From positions 16,554,001-16,618,000 of the forward strand of contig NC_090357.1 of NCBI RefSeq assembly GCF_035084215.1: 64,000 nt of DNA, in the 5' to 3' direction. This stretch comes from Heptranchias perlo (Eukaryota). Shown here one piece after another: positions 16,706 through 60,401 of the stretch. The notes under the pieces are model-generated. The model ran no database searches and had not been told where the DNA came from. It worked only from the letters and a program-made list of their open reading frames with translations. The position numbers and the translations under genes are program-made. Numbering within the stretch: position 1 is the stretch's first letter; each line of letters begins with the position of its first letter.

Positions 16706-17717
16706 CATAGAAACATAGAAAATAGGATCAGGAGTAGACCATTCGGCCCTTCGAGCCTGCTCCGCCATTCAATATGATCATGGCTGATGCTATATCTCAA
16801 TACCATATTCCCGCTCTCTCCCCATACCCCTTGATGCCTTGTGTCTAGAAATCTATCTAGCTCCTTCTTAAATATATTCAGTGACTTGGCCTCCACAGCT
16901 TTCCGTGGTAGAGAATTCCACAGGTTCACCACCCTCTCAGTGAAGAAATTTCTCCTCATCTCAGTCTTAAATGTTCCACCCCATAATCTGAGACCGTGAC
17001 CCCTCGTTCTGGACCCCCCCCCCAGGCAGGGGAACCTTTGCTGCACTCCCTCTTTGGCAAGTATATCCTTTCTTAGGTAAGGAGACCAAAACTGCATACA
17101 ATACTCCAGGTGTGGTCTCACCATGGCCCTGTATAACTGCAGTAAGACATTCTTGCTCCTGTATTCAAATCCTCTGGCAATGAAGGCCAACATACCATTT
17201 GCCTTCCTAAGTGCTTGCTGCACCTGCATGTTTGCTTTCAGTGACTGGTGTACAAGGACACACAGGTCCCTTCGTACATCAACATTTCCCAATCTATCAC
17301 CATTTAAATAATGTTCTGCCTTTCTGTTTTTCCTTCCGAAGTGGATAACTTCACATTGATCCACATTATACTGCATCTACTATGTATTTACCCACTCACT
17401 CAACTTGTCGAAATCGCCTTGAAGCCTCTTTGCATCCTCCTCACAACTCACGATCCCACCTAGTTTTGTGTCGTCAGCAAACTTGGTCATTTGGTTCCCT
17501 CATCCAAATCATTGATATATATTGTGACTAGCTGGGGCCCAAGCACTGATCCATGTGGTACCCCACTAGTCACTGCCTGCCACCCTGAAAAAGACCCATT
17601 TATTCCTACTCTCTGTTTCCTGTCTGTTAACCAATTTTCAATCTATGCCAGTATATGACCACCAATCCCATGTGCTTTAATTTTGCACACTAACCTCTTA
17701 TGTGGGACTTTATCAAA
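16706..17717 (-). mobile_element. CR1 LINE RT/3' fragment with internal deletion
   Basis: FDKVPHKRL, PQGSVLGP, KFADDTKL, RPHLEYC; (catagaaa)n tail. Confidence 0.9.
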
Positions 17718-18224
17718 GTCTCCAAGCGCGGACTGGACCCGTAAAACGCAGACCCGTCCATGGCAAATGTGAATGGTTAGTATGTATGAAGCCAAAATAT
17801 TGAGTGGCACAGTACTTTTCCACCTGAATTCTAAGGGTTCCACCGCAAATGAGTTTGGACAGTCTCATCAAACGTGTACATAGAGGACCACAACACAAAC
17901 CTGTCCACAATTTGGCAAACTCTCTCAGTAAAGTCATAAAGCATAGGTAGTATGGGAAATGAGCAAATTTACACCATTGCAGTAGGTTGGAGTTCAAATG
18001 TAGTTGGACAAAAGGGGAGCATACTCTGCCTGTGACTGTTATGCTGACAGAGAAGTGTTTCAGGTTAATACTGAGCATCCACAATATTCTATTCCCCAGG
18101 ACTGACATCCCTCGTCTTCATGGGCAAACAAAAAACATATTAATAAATCTGAAATTAATAAGCTGCACTTTGAAAAGTATTTTTTTTGCCTTTGTTATGA
18201 GCAGAGCTAATCAATGATTAGTTA

Positions 18225-25069: not shown

Positions 25070-25720
25070 AACACCAACTGGCTTTCCGCGACCGGTGGGC
25101 ACCGCAGGGACTGGACTGAAATAATAACATTTAAATTTGACACTTGTTTTGTTTTTTTTGGTTTTTCTGCACATAAACACATCCTAAACCCCCACCACCC
25201 CACCTTTTTATAAAAGGGGGGCCTAAAACACACACACAAAAAAAAAACACCAACTGGAGAACTGTCAGGCCAGATGTTGTGCAGTGCCTTGTTTTACGAC
25301 GTGATGTGCGACAGTGCGTGCGTGCGTGCGTGTGTGTGTGGGCGGCGCCTGTTGCTAGGTGCCGCAGTGTGGATTGGCAGCGCCGGCCCGGGTGATGCTG
25401 CGCGTTCACAGCGCGGGACTTAAAGCTGTCGCCCGGCGCGCCGCGCCCCGTGCCTGGAAGCGCAGTCAGCCCGCCGGCCGCCAGCCTCCCGTCACCCCCT
25501 CACCTCGGAGCCTCGCCCTCTGTGCCGACCGTCCTCTCTGGGCATTCCCGGGGCTCGACGACGCTGACCAGCCGGTGTCGCGTTCCGGCCTCGCCGCCTT
25601 GCTCATGCCCCGGCGCCTCGCTACCATGGCAGCGCCGAGTATGGCCAAGAGGATGATCTGGGTGGATCTGGAGGTAACTTTTCTGGTGCGGCCCCTCCTC
25701 CTCCGTGCGGTGCGGTTAGA
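25070..25720. promoter_or_regulatory. REXO2 CpG-island promoter with (GTGC)n/(GT)n microsatellite
   Basis: High CpG density around exon 1; gtgcgtgcgtgcgtgcgtgtgtgtgtg at about 25314-25340. Confidence 0.7.
25395..25673 (+). CDS. REXO2: Oligoribonuclease REXO2 (mitochondrial/cytosolic, DEDDh) exon 1
   Basis: MLRVHSAGLKAVARR...MAAPSMAKRMIWVDLE|gtaact; ExoI motif WVDLE; second in-frame ATG with strong Kozak (ACCATGG) at 25626; the upstream start is inferred. Confidence 0.9.
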
Positions 25721-27526
25721 ACTTTTTAATGGTGAATTAATACATCTTCAGGGAGTGGGGGGGGGGACAGGAAACTTTTTTTTTTCCATATCGGGTTGAG
25801 GTATAGTTTTGAGGCAAAGTTTATTAGCGGCAACCGAGCAGGACGGTGCTGTAATTTTGCGGCTGTTTTATCGATGCAGCTGTTCATTTACGCATGAATC
25901 ATTTCTGGGGCTTAACGTCCAGCTCGCCCGCAGAGGCCGATTAACAGCAACCCTCGTGCTTTTCCTGTTAATCTTGTCACTTGCCTCTCTTTTTTTAAAA
26001 AAAAACATTTTCGTTAAAGTACGAAACTGCACTAACATGGCCCTAAATACAAGTCATCTTTTTTTTAGACGCAGGCGCTCTTGCAAGTGTTATCTTCGAT
26101 CTACCGCGTAAAAGAGGTTTATTTTTATCTAAAAATCGGAATGATTGAAAAATATGCGTAGTCCATAATTTCAGTTGAACCGCACTTAAAATTGGGAACG
26201 ATTTTATGCTTGGTGGTACTGTGTGTGTAAAGTGCCAAAGAGAGATGATGATGCAAGTTTTCCATGTGATTTTTTTTTCCCCTGTTTATGCCAGTTGACG
26301 AGGTGTTCAGTGGCGAATCGACTGTTTGGCAGAAGAATGGAGAAACTTGTGTGCAAATCTGTTCATTTCTTCTGGTTCAAGAATGATGTTGCTAAAGCTC
26401 TAGATACAAGTTGTTTGCCCTATGTGGGAAAGTGAGGGGTGGAAACAGCTGGGGAACTATAATTGATCAGATGGATTCGATTTATCTCAGTAGGGTAGCG
26501 ATAGATCCATTTATGTTATGCTGGGTATTCAATAGCTTGTTTCACTTTGTGGATTCCAAACCTATGTCCAAATGGCCCAGAATTTGCTGTAGCTGGTGCC
26601 CACCATTAGTTAGTCTCCCCCCCCCCCCCCCCCCCCTTGCCAGTTTAATTTCCATTATATTTTGCACTGTAAGTTGTTGGAAGTGGGAGAGGGAGATAGT
26701 GTGGTGCCCTCTACAGGACATCTTTGATCTGTGTGAACAGGGCAAGCAACTGTGTCTGAACAAGAAAGTAAGTTAGAATAGTGAAATCAATGTCAAATCA
26801 GGCACAGGAAGAGAAAGAGAGGGAAAGAAAGATTGGATTAAGAGAGAGGAAAAAAAGTGTTTTTTAAAAATTAATTACATTTTAAAAAAATGTTCAACAA
26901 CAAAACCTGCAGGAATGAGAATCCTCACTTGTAATAGTTCATTTTCAGTGCCAGAGAGGTTGTTTGGTAGTACTTAACACTTATCTCACTGTTTAAATAG
27001 GGTACTAAGGCTGAAATGGACAAGCCCTAACTTTCTGTGGTGAGTTTAGTTCATATCTCCTGTGCAAGTACAGGAACTTCATGCTGTTTAATGCATTTCA
27101 ATGGTGAGTCAGCCAGTGAGATGCCATTAGCCTCAGTTATTTTGACAGCAAATTCTGGGCCAGTGTGGATTTTTTCAGGTGTAGTCAACATTGCAGTCTT
27201 GTAATTGATTAACCATAATCCCAATGAATGATGTGAAGTAATAAGTAATTGAAGAATTTTATAATGCTGAATAAATCAAATCTATTGGTTCACTTAAGTT
27301 TTTGTAGATGGAGACAGCTTCAGATTCTGCACTGCTTTCAGTTCTGTGCAAACACTTAAAAATGTGTAGAATTGAGGAGATAGGAGCAGAGAATCAAAAT
27401 AATTCTTTGGCTCAATCATAAAATGGGGCTTTAGGTTTTGAGTGCCATTCACTGACAATGTATTGCAGTACTTGGCCTTTACTATTTTATGGAATTGCTA
27501 TTTAGATTGGAATTGATGGGAGGAAA

Positions 27527-28982
27527 TTTTTTTTTTATTCATTCATGGGATGTAGGGGTCGCTGGCAAGTCCAGCATTTATTGCCCAACCCTAGTTGCCC
27601 TCGAGAAGGTGGTGGTGAGCCGCCGCCTTGAACAGCTGCAGTCCGTGTGGTGAAGGTTCTCCCGCAGTGCTGTTAAGTAGGGAGTTCCAGGATTTTGACC
27701 CAGCAACGATGAAGGAACAGCGATATATTTCCAAGTCAGGATGGTGTGTGACTTGGAGGGGAATGTGCAGGTGTTGTTCCCATGTACCTACTGCCCTTGT
27801 CGTTCTAGGTGGTAGAGGGCATGGGTTTGGGAGGTGCTGTCGAAGAAGCCTTGGCGCGTTGCTGCAGTGCATCCTGTGGATGGTACACACTGCAGCCACT
27901 GTGTGCCGGTGGTGAAGGGAGTGAATGTTTAGGGTGGTGAATGGGGTGCCAATCAAGCGAACTGCTTTGTCCTGGATGGTGTCGAGCTTCGAGTGTTGTT
28001 GGAGCTGCACTCATCCAGGCAAGTGGACAGTATTCCATCACACCCCTGACTTGTGTCTTGTAGATGCTGGAAAGGCTTTGGGGAGTCAGGTGAGTCACTG
28101 GCTGCAGAATACCCAGCCTTTGACCTGCTCTTGTAGCCACAGTATTTATGTGGCTGGTCCAGTTAAGTTTCTGGTCAATGGTGACCCCCAGGATGTTGAT
28201 GGTGGGGGATTCGGCAATGGTAATGCCATTGAATGTCAAGGGGAGGTGATTAGACACTCTCTTGTTGGAGATGGTCATTGCCTGGCACTTGTCTGGCGTG
28301 AATGTTACTTGCCACTTATCAGCCCAAGCCTGGATGTTGTCCAGGTCTTGCTGCATGCGGGCTCGGACTGCTTCATTATCTGAGGGGTTGCGAATGGAAC
28401 TGAACACTGTGCAATCATCAGCGAACATCCCCATTTCTGACCTTATGATGGAGGGAAGGTCATTGATGAAGCAGCTGAAGATGGTTGGGCCTAGGACACT
28501 GCCCTGAGGAACTCCTGCAGCAATGTCCTGGGGCTGAGATGATTGGCCTCCAACAAACACTACCATCATGCTTTGTGCTAGGTATGACTCCAGCCACTGG
28601 AGAGTTTTCCCCCTGATTCCCATTGATTTCAGTTTTACTAGGGCTCCTTGGTTCCACACTCTGTCAAATGCTGCCTTGATGTCAAGGGCAGTCACTTTCA
28701 CCTCACCTCTGGAATTCAGCTCTTTTGTCCATGTTTGGACCAAGGCTGTAATGAGGTCTGGAGCAGAGTGGTCCTGGCGGAACCCAAACTGAGCATCGGT
28801 GAGCAGGTTATTGGTGAGTAAGTGCCGCTTGATAACACTGTGCTGATGATTAAGAGTAGACTGATGGGGTGATAATTAGCCGGATTGGATTTGGCTGCTT
28901 TTTGTGAACAGGACATACTTGGCCAATTTTCCACATTGTCGGGTAGATGCCAGTGTTGTAACTGTACTGGAACAGCTTGGCT
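27527..28982 (-). mobile_element. 5'-truncated CR1-group LINE (RT), same family as 40979-44244
   Basis: LDIKAAFDRVW, PQGSVLGP, MFADDCT; 3' tail gggcaataaatgctgg...catcccatgaatgaataaaaaa. Confidence 0.92.
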
Positions 28983-29026
28983 TCTTCTGTGTACATCTGA
29001 CATTTTCCTTTTTGTTTTCTAAATAG

Positions 29027-29110
29027 ATGACTGGGTTGGACATAGAAAAAGATAAAATCATAGAAATGGCTTGCATTATAACCGATTCGGATTTGAATAT
29101 TTTAGCTGAG
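29027..29110 (+). CDS. REXO2: REXO2 exon 2
   Basis: aaatag|[28 protein letters not shown]|gtaag; 84 nt. Confidence 0.97.
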
Positions 29111-29241
29111 GTAAGATGTCTTAAAATTTCCTTTAGGATGCACCCCTGGAAAAAAGAGGGGATTTAAAATGGTGTCTCTTCTAGATGTGTTTTATGTTCC
29201 AAAATAAAGTGACTGTCACTGGTGTTTCTTTTTGTTATCAG

Positions 29242-29319
29242 GGTCCACATTTGATTATTAACCAACCAAATGAGCTGCTGGATGGCATGTCAGACTGGTG
29301 TACGGAACATCATGGAAAT
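29242..29319 (+). CDS. REXO2: REXO2 exon 3
   Basis: tatcag|GPHLIINQPNELLDGMSDWCTEHHGN|gtaag; 78 nt. Confidence 0.97.
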
Positions 29320-30259
29320 GTAAGGTGCTGCCTAGTATTTTTCAGTTATACTGGCACCTCTGCACAGCTAATAATTCGCATGCATGCATCTGAATTGCTG
29401 ACCCTGCCTAATCTTTCTTTCTTTCTACCCACTCTCTTCAAAACAGCAATCAGTTAATATCAAACTTCCTTGTGACAGTCCATGTGATATGTCCTGTTCT
29501 GGTTCAGAACTTGGGTTGCCCATATATCAACAATAGTCACTGTACTTCAAAGATAATTCATTGTAAAATGCTTTTGAAATATTTCAATTTTGTTCCCTGT
29601 GCATTTTCCCTAGTTTAAATAGATTCTTTTTGAAGTCACCTTGGAGGACTATGTCATGTAATGTCCTCTGTTTTTCCACTTCCAATTCTATTGAAATCGC
29701 TATTGTAGATCTTACTTATCTAATGTTGTTCTTTGGCTCTGTGACTGCTTTGATTTCAGCTTTCTGTGATGTACCACGTCAAAGTTAATAGTTTTAATTT
29801 TCTGTCTTGTGTACCTAAATAGATGATGAACTTGATATAAACAGCATATTTTGTTTTATTGCATATATTGCTTGTGGGAGTCGATGGAAAAAGATATTAA
29901 TGTAATGGAATTTTTTGTCGATGGATCACTCTGTTTGCACTTCATGTCAACTTTCCCATTACAAATTCCTGTGTTCACGCGCACAATGGAAACTGCCTAT
30001 TTAAACTTGCCACATTGTAATTACACTCAACAATGGTGACACTACAGCACCACCACTGGTGGGAGAATGTAATTACAAGACCAGTTTAAATGTGTAGTTT
30101 CCATTATAAATGTGGGCATAAGAATTTATAATGAGAATATATAAAAATAAGGAAAGAATGCATGAATTTCAGATAGCTCAATGGTTCTAAATTAAATCTG
30201 CACACCCTGGTCCAGCATCACTTCACCTAAAAACTACACTTGCACTTCAGTCATGTATA

Positions 30260-30840
30260 ATAAGAACATAAGACATAAGAACATAAGAAATAGGAGCAGG
30301 AGTAGGCCAATCGGCCCCTCGAGCCAGCTCTGCCATTCAATAAGATCATGGCTGATCTGATCCTAACCTCAAATCTAAATTCATGTCCAATTTCCTGCCC
30401 GCTCCCCGTAACCCCTAATTCCCTTTACTTCTAGGAAACTGTCGATTTCTGTTTTAAATTTATTTAATGTAGCTTCCACAGCTTCCTGGGGCAGCAAATT
30501 CCACAGACCTACTACCCTCTGAGTGAAGAAGTTTCTCCTCATCTCAGTTTTGAAAGAGCAGCCCCTTATTCTAAGATTATGCCCCCTAGTTCTAGTTTCA
30601 CCCATCCTTGGGAACATCCTTACCGCATCCACCCGATCAGGCCCCTTCACAATCTTATATGTTTCAATAAGATCGCCTCTCATTCTTCTGAACTCCAATG
30701 AGTAGAGTCCCAATCTACTCAACCTCTCCTCATATGTCTGCCCCCTCATCCCCGGGATTAACCGGGTGAACCTTCTTTGTACTGCCTCGAGAGCAAGTAT
30801 GTCTTAAGTATGGACACCAAAACTGTATGCAGTATTCCAC
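30260..30840 (-). mobile_element. CR1 LINE 3' fragment
   Basis: YEERLSRLGLYSLEFRRMRGDLIETYK; (taagaaca)n tail. Confidence 0.9.
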
Positions 30841-31131
30841 AGGAAATTTGACTAGTGTCAATCATTTTATAAAGACATTGAGCGGGGGGAGTAAATATGA
30901 AGGAAATGTCAGTTGATGAATAAAGTGTTAATTCTGAAAACATAAACGCTACATAAGTTTTTTTGAGATTTCACTGTGATGAGGTGTTAATATAAATTGG
31001 TGCAATGGCAGGAGATTGCCACAGTTGTGGATTTTTTTGTAATGGTGTATATAAATGTTATCTCTGCAGCTAAGAACCTGTACACCTGGCTTCAAAACAG
31101 TGAATATACTTTTTTTGACCTTTCCTTGCAG

Positions 31132-31243
31132 TCAGGTCTCACACAGGCAGTGCGGAACAGCAAGATCAGCCTGCAGCAAGCAGAATATGAGTTTCTGTCT
31201 TTTGTACGCCAGCACACCCCACCAGGCCTTTGTCCTCTTGCAG
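31132..31243 (+). CDS. REXO2: REXO2 exon 4
   Basis: ttgcag|[38 protein letters not shown]|gtatg; 112 nt. Confidence 0.97.
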
Positions 31244-31748
31244 GTATGTCAGATTAACTCAGTGTAATATCTGGCTTGCATTGGGTTTTTTTCATTGATA
31301 CTGTTGGTGCCGAAGAAGCTTTATCCATTACGGTAATGTTGTGCTTCTTGATATCAACAAGTATGAACACTCTTGAATGTGTAGGGATCACTTATGAGTG
31401 GTCAAAGAAACAGAAGCCAAAAATATATTTCCAGAACAAGAAGGGTTAAAAGAATCAAATTGTATTGGGGGGAATAGCTTTTTCTAGCAAGGGATGAGCC
31501 TGCTCAAAGTACTTGGTCACTTAATTTGATTTATACAAGTAGACAGTCTTGTACTGTAACTCCTGATCATCCTTGCTCAGTTTGAGGATCTATTCATCAG
31601 TCAGGCTGCTTTTTAAAATGACAAACTCGAGGCTCCCAGATGAAGAATTACCAGTATGTGCAAACACCCATGGAGCATACGCTTGCATGAGTTAGCGTCC
31701 TTAAGGAGAGGAGAGCAGAAAATTAATGTTCTAAACATCTACTTCTAG

Positions 31749-31857
31749 GAAATTCAGTCCACGCTGATAAAAAGTTTCTGGATAAGTATATGCCACAGTT
31801 CATGAGGCACTTGCATTACAGAATAATTGATGTCAGCACCATCAAGGAATTATGCAG
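31749..31857 (+). CDS. REXO2: REXO2 exon 5
   Basis: ttctag|(G)[35 protein letters not shown](R)|gtaac; 109 nt. Confidence 0.97.
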
Positions 31858-40978: not shown

Positions 40979-43900
40979 GGCAGTACGGTAGCATAGTAGT
41001 TATGTTACTGGACTTGTAGTCCAGAGGCCTGGACTAATAATCCGGAATCATGAGTTCAAGTCCCGCCATGGCAGCTGGGGAATTTAAATTCAATTAATTA
41101 AATAAAATCTGGAATGAAAAAACTATATCAGTATTGGTGGCCATGAAATTACCGGATTGTCCTAAAAACCCATCTGGTTCACTAATGTCCTTTAGGGAAG
41201 GAAACCTGCCGTCCTTACCCTGTCTGGCCTATATGTGACTCCAGACCCACAGCAATGTGGTTGATTCTTAATCGCCCTCTGAAATGGCCTAGCAAGCCAC
41301 TCAGTTGTACAATCTCGCTAAAAAAAGCCATAACAAGAATAAAACCGGATGGACCACCCGGCATCGGACCACTAGGCACCGGACACGACAAAGGCAAACC
41401 AAGCCCAGTCGACCCTGCAAAGTCCTCCTCACTACATCTGGGGACTTGTGCCAAAATTGGGAGAGCTGTCCCACAGACTAGTCAAGCAACAGCCTGACAT
41501 AGCCATACTCACAGAATCATACCTTTCAGCCAACGTCCCAGACCCCTCCATCACCATCCCTGGGTATGTCCTGTCCCACCGGCAGGACAGACCCACCAGA
41601 GGTGGCGGTACAGTGATATACAGTCAGGAGGGAGTGGCCCTGGGAGTCCTTAACATTGACTCTGGACCCCATGAAATCTCATGGCATCAGGTCAAACATG
41701 GGCGAGGAAACCTTCTGCTGATTACCACCTACCGCTCTCCATCAGCTGATGAATCAGTCCTCCTCCATGTTGAGCACCACTTGGAGGAAGCACTGAGGGT
41801 AGCAAGGGCACAGAATGTACTCTGGGTGGGGGACTTCCATGTCCATCACCAAGAGTGGCTCGGTAGCACCACTACTGACCGAGCTGGCCGAGCCCTGAAG
41901 GGCCTAGCTGCCAGACTGGTCCTGTGGCAGGTGGTGAACGAACCAACACAAGGGAAAAACCTACTTGACCTCGTCCTCACCAATCTACCTGTCGCAGATG
42001 CATCTGTCCATGACAGTATTGGTAGAAGTGACCACTGCACAGTCCTCGTAGAGACGAAGTCCCGTCTTCGCACTGAGGACATCATTCAACGTGTTGTGTG
42101 GCACTATCACCGTGCTAAATGGGATAGATTCAGGACAGATCTAGTAGCTCAAAACTGGGCATCCATGAGGCGCTGTGGGCCATCAGCAGCAGCAGATTTG
42201 TAATCCAGCATAATCTGTAACCTCATGGCCCGGCATACCACTCTACCATTACCAACAAGCCATGGGATCAACCCTGGTTCAATGAGGAGTGTAGAAGAGC
42301 ATGCCAGGAGCAGCATCAGGCATACCTAAAAATGAGGTGCCAACCTGGTGAAGCTACAACTCAGGACTATTTGCATGCTAAACAGCGGAAGCAACATGCT
42401 ATAGAGCTAAGCGATTCCACAACCAATGGATCAGATCAAAGCTCTGCAGTCCTGCCACATCCAGTCGTGAATGGTGGTGGACAATTAAACAACTAACGGG
42501 AGGACAACACTCTGTAAACATCCCCATCCTCAATGATGGCGGAGTCCAGCACGTGAGTGGAAAAGACTATGCTGAAGCGTTTGCAACCATCTTCAGCCAG
42601 AAGTGCCGAGTGGATGATCCATCTCGGCCTCCTCCCGATATCCCCACCATAACAGAAGCCAGTCTTCAGCCAATTCGATTCACTCCACGTGATATCAAGA
42701 AACGGCTGAGTGCACTGAATACAGCAAAGGCTATGGGCCCTGACAACATCCCGGCTGTAGTGCTGAAGACTTGTGCTCCAGAACTAGCCGCACCTCCAGC
42801 CAAACTGTTCCAATACAGCTACAACCCTGACATCTACCCGACAATGTGGAAAATTGCCCAGGTATGTCCTGTTCACAAAAAGCAGGACAAATCCAATCCG
42901 GCCAATTACCGCCCCATCAGTCTACTCTCAATCATCAGCAAAGTGATGAAGGTGTCATCGACAGTGCTATCTAAGTGGCACTTACCAATAACCTTCTTAC
43001 CGATGCTCAGTTTGGGTTCCGCCAGGACCACTCAGCTCCAGACCTCATTACAGCCTTGGTCCAAACATGAACAAAAGAGCTGAATTGCAGAGGTGAGGTG
43101 AGAGTGACTGCTCTTGGTAGCATTTGACCGAGTGTGGCACCAAGGAGCTCTAGTAAAATTGAAGTCAATGGGAATCAAGGGGAAAACTCTCCAGTGGCTG
43201 GAGTCATACCTAGCACAAAGGAAGATGGTAGTGGTTGTTGGAGCCCAATCATCTCAGCCCCAGGACATTGCTGCAGGTGTTCCTCAGGGCAGTGTCCTTG
43301 GCTCAACCACCTTCAGCTGCTTCATCAATGACCTTCCCTCCATCATACAGTCAGAAATGGGGATGTTCGCTGATGATTGTACAGTGTTCAGCTCCATTCG
43401 CAACCCCTCAGATAATGAAGCAGTCTGTGCCCGCATGCAGCAAGACCTGGACAACATCCAGGCTTGGGCTGATAAGTGACAAATAACATTTGTGCCAGAC
43501 AATGACCATCTCCAACAAGAGAGAGTCTAACCACCTCCCCTTGACATTCAACGGCATTGCCAAATCCCCCACCATCAACATCCTGGGGGTCACCATTGAC
43601 CAGAAACATAACTGGACCAGCCACATAAATACTGTGGCTACAAGAGCAGGTCAGAGGCTGGGTATTCTGCAGCGAGTGACTCACCTACTGACTCCCCAAA
43701 GCCTTTCCACCATCTACAAGGCACAAGTCAGGAGTGTGATGGAATACTTTCCACTTGCCTGGATGATGGCAGCTCCAACAACACTCAAGAAGCTCTGCAC
43801 CATCCAGGAAAAAGCAGCCCGCTTGATTGGCACCCCTTCCACCACCCTAAATATTCACTCCCTTCACCACCGGCGCACTGTGGCTGCAGTGTGCACCATC

Positions 43901-44244
43901 CACAGGATGCACTGCAGCAACTCGCCAAGGCTTTTTCGACAGCACCTCCCAAACCCGTGACCTCTACCACCTATAAGGACAAGGGCAGCAGGCACAAGGA
44001 GACAACATCACCTGCACATTCCCCTCTAAGTCACACACCATCCCGACTTGGAAATATATCGCCGTTCCTTCATCGTCACTGGGTCAAAATCCTGGAACTC
44101 CCCACCTAACAGCACTGTGGGAGAACCTTCAACACACGGACTGCAGCGGTTCAAGAAGGCGGCTCACCACCACCTTCTCAAGGGCAATTAGGGATGGGCA
44201 ACAAATGCTGGCCTTGCCAGCGACGCCCACATCCCATGAACAAT
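40979..44244 (+). mobile_element. Apparently full-length CR1-group LINE (APE+RT, no ORF1) with tRNA/SINE-like 5' head; frameshifted
   Basis: Box A-like 40989-41000, box B GAGTTCAAGTCC 41052-41063; APE motifs AILTES, WVGDF, LLDLVLTN, SDH; RT motifs NYRPISLL, AFDRVWH, PQGSVLG, FADD; 3' tail to catcccatgaac. Confidence 0.9.
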
Positions 44245-45231
44245 TTTTTTTTTTTAAAGTTTGCAATTAGCTCCCTCCCAGTCTGGCTTCATGTTTGATT
44301 GCTCACTTCTAGCAGTGATTCCAGGTTGCATACTCCCACTTGCTGCTGGGTCTCCACAAGTGCTTTATTCCTGAACCATGAGGGCTCTGCCAAGTGCTTC
44401 AGCTCTACTTCTGGCCTAGGTAGGCCTGGAACCCATTCCCCACCATTTTGTCTCTCCAGACTCTGCTCGCCACCATTTCATTGCTCCAGGTACCAAGTTA
44501 ACTTCTTATTAAACCACTTCCCTACCTCAGTCTGCCACGGTCTCCCTCCCTGGCTTCAAGTGGGAGAGAGAGGAAGACAACTTGTTAAACAGGAGGGGAG
44601 AGAAATATATGGAGAAAAGTGAGACCCTATTAAATGAGAGTAGGGTGAAAGAGAAAGGCCATATTGAGTGGTGAGAGAAACCCTGTTGATGATTGGGGGG
44701 AGGGGGGGAGATATGAAAAGAGACCCTGTTGTGATGCAGGGACCATGACAGAAATAGAGATTAATGCTTGGCATTGGAATGCAGGTGAAAATCCTATCAG
44801 TCCTCCCATTACAGTGTATTTTCTTACATATTCTACCAATTACAGCATTTTCAATTAAAACACCAAAGAGTGACTAGTTAGCCAGGATTTGGATTTTTTT
44901 AAATGAAAAGTAGCCTTAAAGAAATTTGTGACATGTGAGAGAATTTTGAATAAATTTTACTTTTATCAGACTAAATGGTACAATGATAACTTGTAAAGAT
45001 CTCTTCAGATGTTTTTGAATAGCAGCATTAGATATCATCTGCACTGTAATAAATTGAAGTTTGAAAGAAACATCACCAGATTAGTACTTCAGTTTTGTCA
45101 AATTCTACATTTGTGGCTTGATAATCCACACATTTGATCTGTATTCAGATTTGATCTAATCAGTAATGAGTGCAGACTCTGCCATTGAAGTAGCATCATC
45201 ATAGAAACCTAACTTGCAGTGTTGGTTTTAG

Positions 45232-57213: not shown

Positions 57214-59810
57214 GGGGGAAGAACTTGCTCCCGAAATAACGGAGGAGCTCAACGGCGCTCTCCGTTTTTAATGGCGAATCGTGAACTTTCTCCTTTTGGC
57301 TCACCGGCGATTTGACAGCTGCGAATTAAAGGGCCATTGCACGTTACAATCAATCACTGAAAAATCACAAACTTGCTCATCCGCCCAGCTGGAAAGTAAC
57401 TACTTACGCCTCCAAAAGGTACGCTTAAAAATACCAGGTCTAAACTAAGTTTTAAAAGCACACTTAGTTTTAATGACTGCCAAACAACTAAAAATTAAAT
57501 TTTAAAAATGTGGAGTCTCATATTACTCCTTATTTTAATAGTTTATGGTCAGGAGGGCAAAAGGGGGACATGAGATTGCTTTGGCAGATAAAGCAAGGGA
57601 GAATCCAAAGAGCTTCTACAAATACATAAAGGGCAAAAGAGTAACTAGGGAGAGAGTAGGGCCTCTTAAGGATCAACAAGGTCATCTATGTGCGGAACCA
57701 CAAGAGATGGGTGAGATCCTGAATGAATATTTCACATCGGTATTTACGGTTGAGAAAGGCATGGATGTTAGGGAACTTGGGGAAATAAATAGTGATGTCT
57801 TGAGGAGTGTACATATTAGAGAGAGGGAGGTGCTGGAAGTCTTAACGCGCATCAAGGTAGATAAATCTCCGGGACCTGATGAAATGTATCCCAGGACGTT
57901 ATGGGAGGTTAGGGAGGAAATTGCGGGTCCCCTAGCAGAGATATTTGAATCATCCACCGCTACAGGTGAGGTGCCTGAAGATTGGAGGGTAGCAAATGTT
58001 GTGCCTTTGTTTAAGAAGGGCGGCAGGGAAAAGCCTGGGAACTACAGATCGGTGAGCCTGACATCTGTAGTGGGTAAGTTGTTAGAGGGTATTCTGAGGG
58101 ACAGGATCTACAGGCATTTGGAGAGGCAGGGACTGATTAGGAACAGTCAGCATGGTTTTGTGAGAGGAAAATCATGTCTCACGAATTTGATTGAATTTTT
58201 TGAAGGGGTAACCAAGAAGATAGATGAGGGCTGTGCAGTAGACGTGGTCTACATGGACTTCAGCAAAGCCTTTGACAAGGTACCGCATGGTAGGTTGTTA
58301 CATAAGGTTAAATCTCACGGGATCCAAGGTGAGGTAGCCAATTGGATACAAAATTGGCTTGACGACAGAAGACAGAGGGTGGTTGTAGAGAGTTGTTTTT
58401 CAAACTGGAGGCCTGTGTCCAGCGGTGTGCCTCAGGGATCGATGCTGGGTCCGCTGTTATTTGTTATTTATATTAATGATTTGGATGAGAATTTAGGAGG
58501 CATGGTTAGTAAGTTTGCAGATGACACCAAGATTGGTGGCATTGTGGACAGTGAAGAAGGTTATCTAGGATTGCAACGGGATCTTGATAAATTGGGCCAG
58601 TGGGCCGATGAATGGCAGATGGAGTTTAATTTAGATAAATGTGAGCATTTTGGTCGATCGAATCGGGCCAGGACCTACTCCGTTAATGGTAGGGCGTTGG
58701 GGAGAGTTATAGAACAAAGAGATCTAGGAGTACAGGTTCATAGCTCCTTGAAAGTGGAGTCACAGGTGGATAGGGTGGTGAAGAAGGCATTCGGCATGCT
58801 TGGTTTCATTGGTCAGAACATTGAATACAGGAGTTGGGATGTCTTGTTGAAGTTGTACAAGACATTAGTAAGGCCACACTTGGAATACTGTGTACAGTTC
58901 TGGTCACCCTACTATAGAAAGGATATTATTAAACTAGAAAGAGTGCAGAAAAGATTTACTAGGATGCTACCGGGACTTGATGGTTTGACTTATAGGGAGA
59001 GGTTAGATAGACTGGGACTTTTTTCCCTAGAGAGTGATCTTATAGAAGTCTATAAAATAATGAGGGGCATAGATAAGGTAGATAGTCAAAATCTTTTCCC
59101 AAAGGTAGGGGAGTCTATAACGAGGGGACATAGATTTAAGGTGAGAGGGGAGAGATACAAAAGGGTCCAGAGGGGCAATTTTTTCACTCAAAGGGTGGTG
59201 AGTGTCTGGAACGAGCTGCCAGAGGCAGTAGTAGAGGCGGGTACAATTTTGTCTTTTAAAAAGCATTTGGACAGTTACATGGGTAAGATGGGTATAGAGG
59301 GATATGGGCCAAGTGCAGGCAATTGGGACTAGCTTAGTGGTATAAACTGGGCGACATGGACATGTTGGGCCGAAGGGCCTGTTTCCATGTTGTAACTTCT
59401 ATGATTCTATGATTAAAACATTTTAAAAATTAAATTAATTTTTAAAATACTTTTCTGTCTCTGTAATTTAATTCAATTATTTCTTTGGCTTTTCATTGTA
59501 AATTAAAAAAAATAATTTTTTTAATGACTTCCAGAATACTAACTTTAAATGAATGAAGTCTGCTTGCCTGCTTGTGGGCGTGACTTCTCTTCCTGACAGA
59601 TTTTGTGGGCATGTCTTCTATTTTCACAGACTGACTGTTCCGTGTGCATCAACTTATGCTGCTCGGAGGCTGAGTTGATTGCGCACAATTTTTTAAAGGT
59701 TCAAAATCAACCAAGTCGATGCCACAGAGCCCGCAATAAAAACGTTTGTTAATTTAATTCGCAGGAGCTGCAGCGATCGTTGCCACATTGCTCTGCACAA
59801 GTTCTAGCCC
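57214..59810. mobile_element. Non-autonomous DNA element split by a CR1 insertion
   Basis: Ends gggggaagaacttgct / gcacaagttctagccc; halves 57214-57550 and 59414-59810 are collinear with the uninterrupted copy at 23379-24057. Confidence 0.75.
57545..59332 (+). CDS. CR1 reverse transcriptase ORF (595 aa, endonuclease absent); the element extends to ~59413
   Basis: NYRSVSLTS, QHGF, DFSKAFDKVPH, PQGSMLGP, KFADDTK, RPHLEYCVQFW; (ttctatga)n tail; antisense in the last CLMP intron. Confidence 0.9.
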   Translation: MVRRAKGGHEIALADKARENPKSFYKYIKGKRVTRERVGPLKDQQGHLCAEPQEMGEILNEYFTSVFTVEKGMDVRELGEINSDVLRSVHIREREVLEVLTRIKVDKSPGPDEMYPRTLWEVREEIAGPLAEIFESSTATGEVPEDWRVANVVPLFKKGGREKPGNYRSVSLTSVVGKLLEGILRDRIYRHLERQGLIRNSQHGFVRGKSCLTNLIEFFEGVTKKIDEGCAVDVVYMDFSKAFDKVPHGRLLHKVKSHGIQGEVANWIQNWLDDRRQRVVVESCFSNWRPVSSGVPQGSMLGPLLFVIYINDLDENLGGMVSKFADDTKIGGIVDSEEGYLGLQRDLDKLGQWADEWQMEFNLDKCEHFGRSNRARTYSVNGRALGRVIEQRDLGVQVHSSLKVESQVDRVVKKAFGMLGFIGQNIEYRSWDVLLKLYKTLVRPHLEYCVQFWSPYYRKDIIKLERVQKRFTRMLPGLDGLTYRERLDRLGLFSLESDLIEVYKIMRGIDKVDSQNLFPKVGESITRGHRFKVRGERYKRVQRGNFFTQRVVSVWNELPEAVVEAGTILSFKKHLDSYMGKMGIEGYGPSAGNWD

Positions 59811-60401
59811 AGTATGTTTTCAGCCTTGTTAAAAAGGGATGGGCAATAAATGCTGGCCATGCCAGCGACACCCACATCCCATGAACAAATAACAAAAAGG
59901 GATGACAGGACAGTCTGACGGGGCAGTGAGCTCTTTTCAATAAGTGGAACGGCTGTCAAGGAGCCACCTAAGTTGAAGTTTTAAAAAAAAAAGCAAAAAT
60001 AAGATGGGCTCAGTTGTTCTGCAGCTGGTGTGAAGCAAGAACATTGCAAGACCATTAGGAAGCAGCCTCTCCTACGCTGGCACCAGCAGCGTCAGATTGC
60101 TGTTAGGCACCATGATGGAAATATTCTTGTGGGCCCAATGGCAGAATCAGAATCCACAAGAATAAACAGTATCTGAAACGTAAATCTCACACTGGTGCAG
60201 AAGCTACTGCTTTTCCGGGGTTAGAATTAAGTCGCAGTGATGGGGCAATGCACATTTACACAGACACAGATCTCTGTCATACCTCACCAGTGATTAGTGA
60301 CAAGGTCAGCTTGTTAATATTCCAAATCTAAGGGATAACAGGCCCGTAACCCATGTAAACTACCATGATTGTGCATCTTAGGCCGTTGATTGCAACTCTA
60401 C

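Follow-up and report, generated by a model that had tools for sequence, protein, structure and literature searches.

The stretch of DNA analysed here (the window) comprises 64,000 nucleotides (nt) of the Heptranchias perlo genome (NCBI RefSeq assembly GCF_035084215.1, contig NC_090357.1, positions 16,554,001 to 16,618,000 of the forward strand), and harbours an element which, judged by its sequence, is a dead copy of Zenon, an elasmobranch long interspersed nuclear element (LINE) of the CR1 group. In this element a tRNA-like head, carrying the internal boxes of an RNA polymerase III (Pol III) promoter, is followed by a structured 5' untranslated region (UTR) and by a single reading frame for an apurinic/apyrimidinic endonuclease (APE) and a reverse transcriptase (RT) (Table 1). 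A first-pass annotation of the window had recorded the tRNA-like head, with a box A-like sequence at 40989-41000 and box B at 41052-41063, and both boxes are present as it described; its element start at 40979 has been moved to about 40981. It had also considered the copy dead, and stops and frameshifts do interrupt the APE-RT frame; the copy is 95% identical to the majority sequence of its family.

Table 1. Positions of the Zenon copy, its parts and a second copy within the window
Feature	Position	Strand	Remarks
tRNA-derived head	40981..41075	+	family 5' end about 8 nt upstream of box A
Box A	40989..40999	+	family majority TAGCATAGTGG, studied copy with one change; box A consensus TRGCNNARYNNG
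Box B	41052..41063	+	family majority GAGTTCAAATCC; canonical GGTTCGAATCC in three other sharks
Structured 5' UTR core, highly conserved	41164..41309	+	common to the LINE and an older bipartite short element
Hairpin with 7-nt anticodon-type loop CTAGCAA	41279..41304	+	loop 41289-41295, central AGC 41291-41293; from predicted folds
In-frame GCT, complementary to loop AGC	41317..41319	+	putative frame-setting pseudoknot (predicted)
Single APE-RT reading frame	41311..44191	+	broken in studied copy
RT motif FADD	43366-43377	+	within APE-RT frame
T5 run	43932..43936	+	copy-specific
3' UTR	44192..44243	+	common to the bipartite short element and to fragment 59835-59888
T12 run	44244..44255	+	copy-specific; replaces family AATAAA/poly-A tail
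Second Zenon copy	27540..28982	-	5'-truncated, A tail; intronic, in an oligoribonuclease-like gene

The suggestion, made in the same annotation, that the family might already be known was borne out by the publication of elasmobranch Zenon (Stuart et al. 2026, PMC13343379), which is described as 3.2-3.3 kb long, with a poly-A tail and without a first open reading frame (ORF1). The consensuses given there (SquAca_Zenon-1/2/3, CarCar, RhiTyp, ScyCan and HypSab_Zenon-1) resemble the studied element in their first 400 nt, in length, in the lack of an ORF1 and in the poly-A tail, and the assignment to Zenon rests on identity, assessed by eye, over those published 5' 400 nt. The family and its lack of an ORF1 are already published; the words tRNA, promoter, polymerase and start codon do not occur in the main text of that paper, where the head, the avoidance of T runs and the missing AUG go undiscussed. 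Contigs of four other organisms (assembled contigs, the kind of run being guessed) cover 30 of 30 bins of the element. A protein search with an APE fragment among longer proteins returned no match, nor did a first metagenome scan.

The association of head and coding body proved to extend throughout the genome. A query composed of head plus endonuclease gave 5744 first-look candidates, and both parts were covered in 40 of the 40 scored, a count that is to be read in the light of a query that itself selects for linkage. A fairer query, consisting of the head only, matched 40 loci; the 30 retrieved include the studied copy, and all 29 others begin at position 1-4 of the family majority within unrelated flanks. 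In 25 of them the sequence continues into the ORF, in one more it reaches the ORF beyond an insertion, and the remaining three are deletions that retain head and tail. Because the head-only loci share one start and mostly continue into the ORF, the head is the normal 5' end of the family. The coupling of head and body postulated by the first-pass annotation holds genome-wide and in the published 5' sequences of five other elasmobranchs, and a chance insertion of the LINE behind a short interspersed nuclear element (SINE) is ruled out by the fixed 5' end together with the genome-wide linkage of head and ORF.

The layout of the head is that of a type 2 Pol III promoter, with internal A and B boxes at tRNA-like spacing and a 5' end just upstream of box A. 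The Rfam tRNA model matched it at E 0.32 in the studied copy and E 0.029 in copy L080, both under the gathering score, with the match limited to model positions 8-63 and the acceptor stem poor; ARAGORN called a tRNA-Thr on L080, one of the seven family copies given to it, and no tRNA in the window. Among the published 5' sequences of five elasmobranch Zenon consensuses, compared by eye, box A is intact in 5/5, and box B is canonical in three sharks, identical to that of the studied family in a fourth, and lacking one base in a ray; the stretch separating the two boxes varies in both length and sequence. No such head was seen within the first 400 nt of the published hagfish and coelacanth Zenon consensuses, and the canonical box B pattern of the other sharks gave 0 matches in this genome.

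The family majority was derived from 39 long stretches, of which 23 colinear full-length copies were kept (16 with deletions, inversions or truncation being left out of the alignment) and aligned with the studied copy, giving 24 aligned sequences. This majority is 3.3 kb long and contains one APE-RT frame of 972 codons from stop to stop, with no room for an ORF1, as the first-pass annotation had maintained; the longest other frame of the 5' region, at 98 codons, lies off-frame. Pfam models for APE (PF14529, PF03372) and RT (PF00078) matched, in two of four fragments scanned, and 971-973 open codons were found in 4 of 20 further stretches that had been chosen for long frames. A comparison of an old subfamily (15 copies) with a young one (18 copies) revealed 20 synonymous and 10 non-synonymous codon differences, and because the resulting ratio of non-synonymous to synonymous change (pN/pS) is 0.16, the frame is judged from its sequence to have been translated in active lineages. 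The intact frames and this ratio agree with the earlier description of an autonomous family, and, whereas a SINE is short and non-coding, the element is 3.3 kb long with a 972-codon frame under purifying selection.

The frame opens with an Arg-rich N-terminal extension and contains no AUG before the endonuclease; the first in-frame Met of intact copies lies at codon 247-249, far beyond the first strand of the endonuclease. A TAG within the loop of the hairpin closes it upstream, joined in the young subfamily by a TAA three codons before the GCT triplet. No near-cognate start codon common to all lineages was found among the family copies and the published 5' consensus sequences, and several older-subfamily copies possess neither an open TTG nor an open ACG. 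An in-frame AUG in copy L132 was dismissed as the product of a private 1-nt insertion. Synonymous first-position changes in Arg codons mark the APE frame, by eye, as the conserved one. The Arg-rich extension (window 41320-41420) resembles extensions in relatives P0011 and P0025, and it is possible that it constitutes a nuclear-import or RNA-binding peptide in place of ORF1.

The third characteristic of the family is a scarcity of T runs on the sense strand. No run of four (T4) is found in the overall, old or young majority (0 in each), so that none of them contains an internal terminator of T4 or longer, and the overall majority holds seven T3 runs in 3.3 kb at 20% T. Twenty of the 24 aligned copies are T4-free, and the remainder (4/24) indicate that dead copies do gain T4. 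The first-pass annotation had noted a single sense run of T4 or longer in the studied copy and had regarded this T5 as private to it, had seen no sense T4 in the second copy, and had reported several in an ordinary CR1 at 57545-59413; these observations all stand, the last with nine runs of T4 or more counted. Its emphasis on T4 itself held only in part. Zero T4 compares with 1.9 expected from synonymous shuffles (P 0.11), 2.0 from a first-order Markov model (P 0.14), and 4.2-4.3 when bases are shuffled or a third-position model is used (P about 0.01), which makes the absence of T4 weak on its own (P 0.009-0.14 overall), whereas the depletion of runs of T3 or more in the ORF is significant, at 5 observed versus 12.2 expected from synonymous shuffles (ratio 0.41, P 0.001-0.002).

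Runs of A3, C3 and G3 in the ORF match expectation, 0 of the 29 codons that precede a TT-starting codon end in T, and Phe is encoded by TTT and TTC in a ratio of 3:16. As controls served 80 related metagenome loci, 61 with frames of at least 400 codons; the T3+ ratio in those 61 LINE ORFs is 0.74-1.23, versus 0.41 in shark Zenon, and 1/61 is T4-free. The best-scoring metagenome relative (L150) has an ordinary AUG, 20 T4 runs and no head, and CR1 elements of the same host (29 loci, of which the four with the longest frames were used, at T 0.24) show a ratio of about 1.0 with 10-12 T4 runs. Because runs of A, C and G are normal, and relatives and host CR1 are undepleted, the depletion is T-specific, sense-strand-specific and family-specific, and the contrast with other LINEs that had been suspected from the window holds. 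When an 84% copy was used as query for an older coding family, only members of the young one were recovered. Three AATAAA or ATTAAA hexamers lie within the first 360 nt, and these are counted in favour of the interpretation preferred below.

At the opposite end of the element a poly-A tail is the family norm, being found at 39 of 40 distinct 3' ends, with a T run only in the studied copy. The T12 that the first-pass annotation placed at the end of the element is present, and its reading as the family end was mistaken; a role as built-in terminator is ruled out by the 39 A-tailed ends. A runs in this genome often become T-run/A-run junctions (in many tails and SINE copies), and the T12 is an extreme case. 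Target-site duplications of at least 7 nt accompany 2 of 34 copies.

An older and abundant SINE (loci L338-L367) shares its tRNA head and UTR core with the LINE and ends in the Zenon 3' tail. A 27-nt motif of the SINE variant is matched exactly at least 850 times in the genome (0 for the control); of 30 SINE loci read, box B is recognisable in 17, a Zenon tail lies within 260 nt in 24, and 15 combine the two, and one runs on into an old piece of the ORF. The SINE majority, of about 430 nt, consists of head, almost unchanged core and tail; where the core ends it departs from the LINE, and contigs of three other organisms show this joint too (L140:601 to 3499). Internal deletion of the LINE gives rise to SINE-like units, a route that is shown to operate because young deletion derivatives exist: copies L078, L089 and L093 are head-plus-tail elements with three different breakpoints. 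The LINE may have taken over the front of this SINE, or the SINE may be a deletion of the LINE. No match to the MetaSINE/UCON3 central domain was seen by eye in a comparison with bivalve Meta sequences and two UCON3 rows.

The 5' UTR core is a candidate ribosome-binding RNA. The 5' 462 nt of L080 fold better than 100 of 100 shuffles (z = -4.0); the core is near-identical between the LINE and SINE majorities while the head diverges; and one compensatory UA to AU pair occurs in a helix upstream of the hairpin. The hairpin itself appears in every predicted fold covering the region and is the last element before the frame, its stem being extended by one G-C pair in the SINE variant and showing only one variant above 20% in the contigs of four other organisms. 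Its 7-nt loop, CUAGCAA, has the form of a tRNA anticodon loop. GCT follows the stem at 12 nt in 63 of 79 copies, and is in the APE frame in 54 of the 60 where both anchors could be scored. A conserved GCTA, set in variable flanks and preceded by a linker that also varies, occurs in the contigs of four other organisms and in five species with published 5' sequences; in four of those five (by eye) GCT is in the APE frame, one of them having a linker 1 base shorter and an extension 3 nt shorter.

Two further leads concerning the hairpin were discarded. A 15-nt hairpin pattern was matched 48 times in viral contigs, always over 22 nt of UTR or less, and these matches were taken as chance; a hypervariable loop T was rejected as a modified-base signature, since it reflects a general CTA mutation hotspot. 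Within the 5' 1500 nt of element copies, T is mutated in 9% of cases at CTA and 4.7% at other TA, against a background of 2% (CpG, 10%), with changes to all three bases, and TpA is a mutation hotspot in this genome.

Elsewhere in the window, the second Zenon copy lies antisense in the first intron of a gene that we take, from its peptide motifs, to encode an oligoribonuclease (REXO2-like), with exons at about 25659, 29027, 29242, 31132 and 31814 (window 25659-31850, +). A solitary Zenon 3' end of 54 nt, A-rich in its tail, occupies 59835-59888, and a degenerate RT fragment of a different LINE family, the best piece of which is about 42% identical to the Zenon protein, lies at 17086-17756 (-).

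Considered jointly, these features of the DNA suggest it to be likely that the autonomous Zenon LINE is transcribed by Pol III, a possibility raised by the first-pass annotation, and that its uncapped RNA is translated via a structured 5' UTR that sets the frame without an AUG. Transcription by Pol III from the internal boxes is, taken singly, quite probable: TFIIIC would bind the boxes, and the polymerase would start at the first G of the element, read 3.3 kb while meeting no terminator, and stop at the first T run in the flank. For the question, also posed by that annotation, of how an uncapped RNA would be translated, a factorless, anticodon-mimicking internal ribosome entry site (IRES) is proposed tentatively as the form of initiation; the CU-AGC-AA loop would pair with the in-frame GCU, in the manner of pseudoknot I (PKI) of dicistrovirus intergenic IRESs, and elongation would begin at the next codon without initiator tRNA. 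The APE-RT protein would subsequently bind the 3' tail and copy the RNA by target-primed reverse transcription, a process established for the CR1 group. That Zenon stands wholly outside the capped-mRNA pathway, combining a 3.3-kb coding RNA made by Pol III with a dicistrovirus-like factorless IRES and dispensing with both AUG and initiator tRNA, seems rather unlikely on the model as it stands.

A number of points weigh against this interpretation, in which polymerase, cap and start of the RNA are all deduced from DNA. Regarding transcription, the absence of T4 is statistically weak by itself; most control LINEs are richer in T, only 4 of 61 being at T of 0.25 or below (those four having ratios of 0.86-1.18); TTT is not known to act as a vertebrate terminator, so that its depletion would need an indirect cause; and copies of the related SINE carry anything from T3 to T7 at one internal position. 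Regarding translation, the pairing of loop and GCT involves 3-4 pairs, shows no compensatory change and was found post hoc, with a chance of a few percent, by our estimate, for a triplet match at one of about three positions. In the published Squalus consensus GCT is one base out of frame, and in one organism the loop C is altered at 24% of depth. The upstream UTR domain has competing helices in which no PKII or L1.1 motif was placed, and Rfam IRES models gave no match at E up to 10. Finally, an ACG directly after GCT in the young subfamily, and an open TTG in some older copies, are usable as near-cognate starts.

Of the alternative explanations, the one that survives best, with a minor yet appreciable likelihood, retains Pol III and replaces the IRES by ordinary cap-independent scanning, or by a frameshift from an upstream AUG frame, the match of hairpin and GCT then being due to chance. 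A 75-codon AUG frame does overlap the start in another frame, and the pairing is short and without covariation; however, the published ray sequence does not keep that frame open and in the whale shark it is displaced by one base, and both the position of GCT in four of five species and the first-position Arg changes single out the APE frame. It is unlikely that the head is instead a captured SINE front which acts as, or rides on, an RNA polymerase II (Pol II) promoter, yielding capped RNA, with T runs lost through avoidance of splice sites or U-rich elements or through drift in an element poor in T, and with near-cognate codons used as starts by leaky scanning or reinitiation. In favour of this, LINEs are regarded as Pol II units (PMC5786205), the T4 result is marginal, and eight upstream AUGs, including an AUG-GCC-UAG just before the frame, accompany the ACG or TTG of some lineages; against this, Pol II-transcribed CR1 of the same genome is undepleted, sharks and a ray alike retain both boxes, the 5' end sits at the start position of a tRNA gene, and some older copies lack any open TTG or ACG. 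Highly improbable is the analogy with R2 in which the tRNA-like fold serves as a processing signal, an RNase P-like activity releasing an uncapped, IRES-needing RNA at tRNA +1 from a host Pol II transcript, for although this would account for the exact 5' end and the AUG-less frame, and R2 does cleave its own 5' end from a co-transcript and the second Zenon copy is intronic, it leaves the T-run avoidance unexplained, the acceptor stem is poor and the conserved parts are the promoter boxes.

Transcription of Zenon by Pol III and cap-independent translation would bear on a working division that assigns coding LINE RNA to Pol II and non-coding SINE RNA to Pol III. That division would be broken by a coding element that has stayed compatible with Pol III in both sharks and rays. 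If the interpretation is correct, translation of a long uncapped RNA would be efficient enough to support insertions by the thousand, a cellular genome would provide an example of a type 6-like IRES, and the partner SINE could arise by simple internal deletion, a direct route to the birth of SINEs. The predicted tRNA mimic bears on two questions, namely how AUG-less LINE frames are started and whether type 6 IRESs exist outside viruses, and a compact Pol III and IRES cassette would serve as an expression tool.

A search of the open-access literature found no paper that describes an autonomous LINE driven by Pol III or an IRES resembling type 6 within such an element. Among known systems, the closest in layout to the 430-nt partner are the tRNA-derived SINEs (SINE2) and bipartite LINE-derived SINEs, in which a tRNA head with boxes A and B is joined to a conserved body and a LINE tail (PMC5786205); Zenon differs from SINE2 in that the same head sits on a coding element. 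Lepidopteran Zenon, according to PMC6740152, is like shark Zenon a single-ORF element of the CR1 group with a poly-A tail and with bipartite derivatives that join its 5' and 3' ends; Persaeus, a deletion derivative with the lepidopteran Zenon 5' end, is described there as being without tRNA homology or a Pol III promoter, unlike the 5' end of shark Zenon. Type 6 IRESs, described from RNA viruses only in the consulted parts of PMC12221177, PMC10275262 and bioRxiv 2024.04.17.590008, share with Zenon a structured RNA of 120-190 nt before an AUG-less frame (here too the ORF directly follows the structure), an anticodon-codon mimic (in Zenon a predicted one) after a variable linker, and first codons of the GCU/ACA type, to which the GCU of Zenon can be likened. 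Their occurrence in elements without long terminal repeats, as intergenic-region IRESs, has been raised as a speculation (PMC3894237). Zenon differs from them in that the prediction is confined to a PKI-like part, with PKII, L1.1 and PKIII (a feature of most type 6 subtypes) unplaced, and there is no sequence similarity. R2, which is co-transcribed with rRNA genes and has its 5' end cleaved from the co-transcript, resembles shark Zenon as interpreted here in being a single-ORF LINE with an RNA not made as a Pol II unit of its own. R2 RNA is uncapped and is translated without an AUG; its restriction-like endonuclease, self-cleaving 5' end, site specificity and want of a promoter of its own all set it apart from Zenon.

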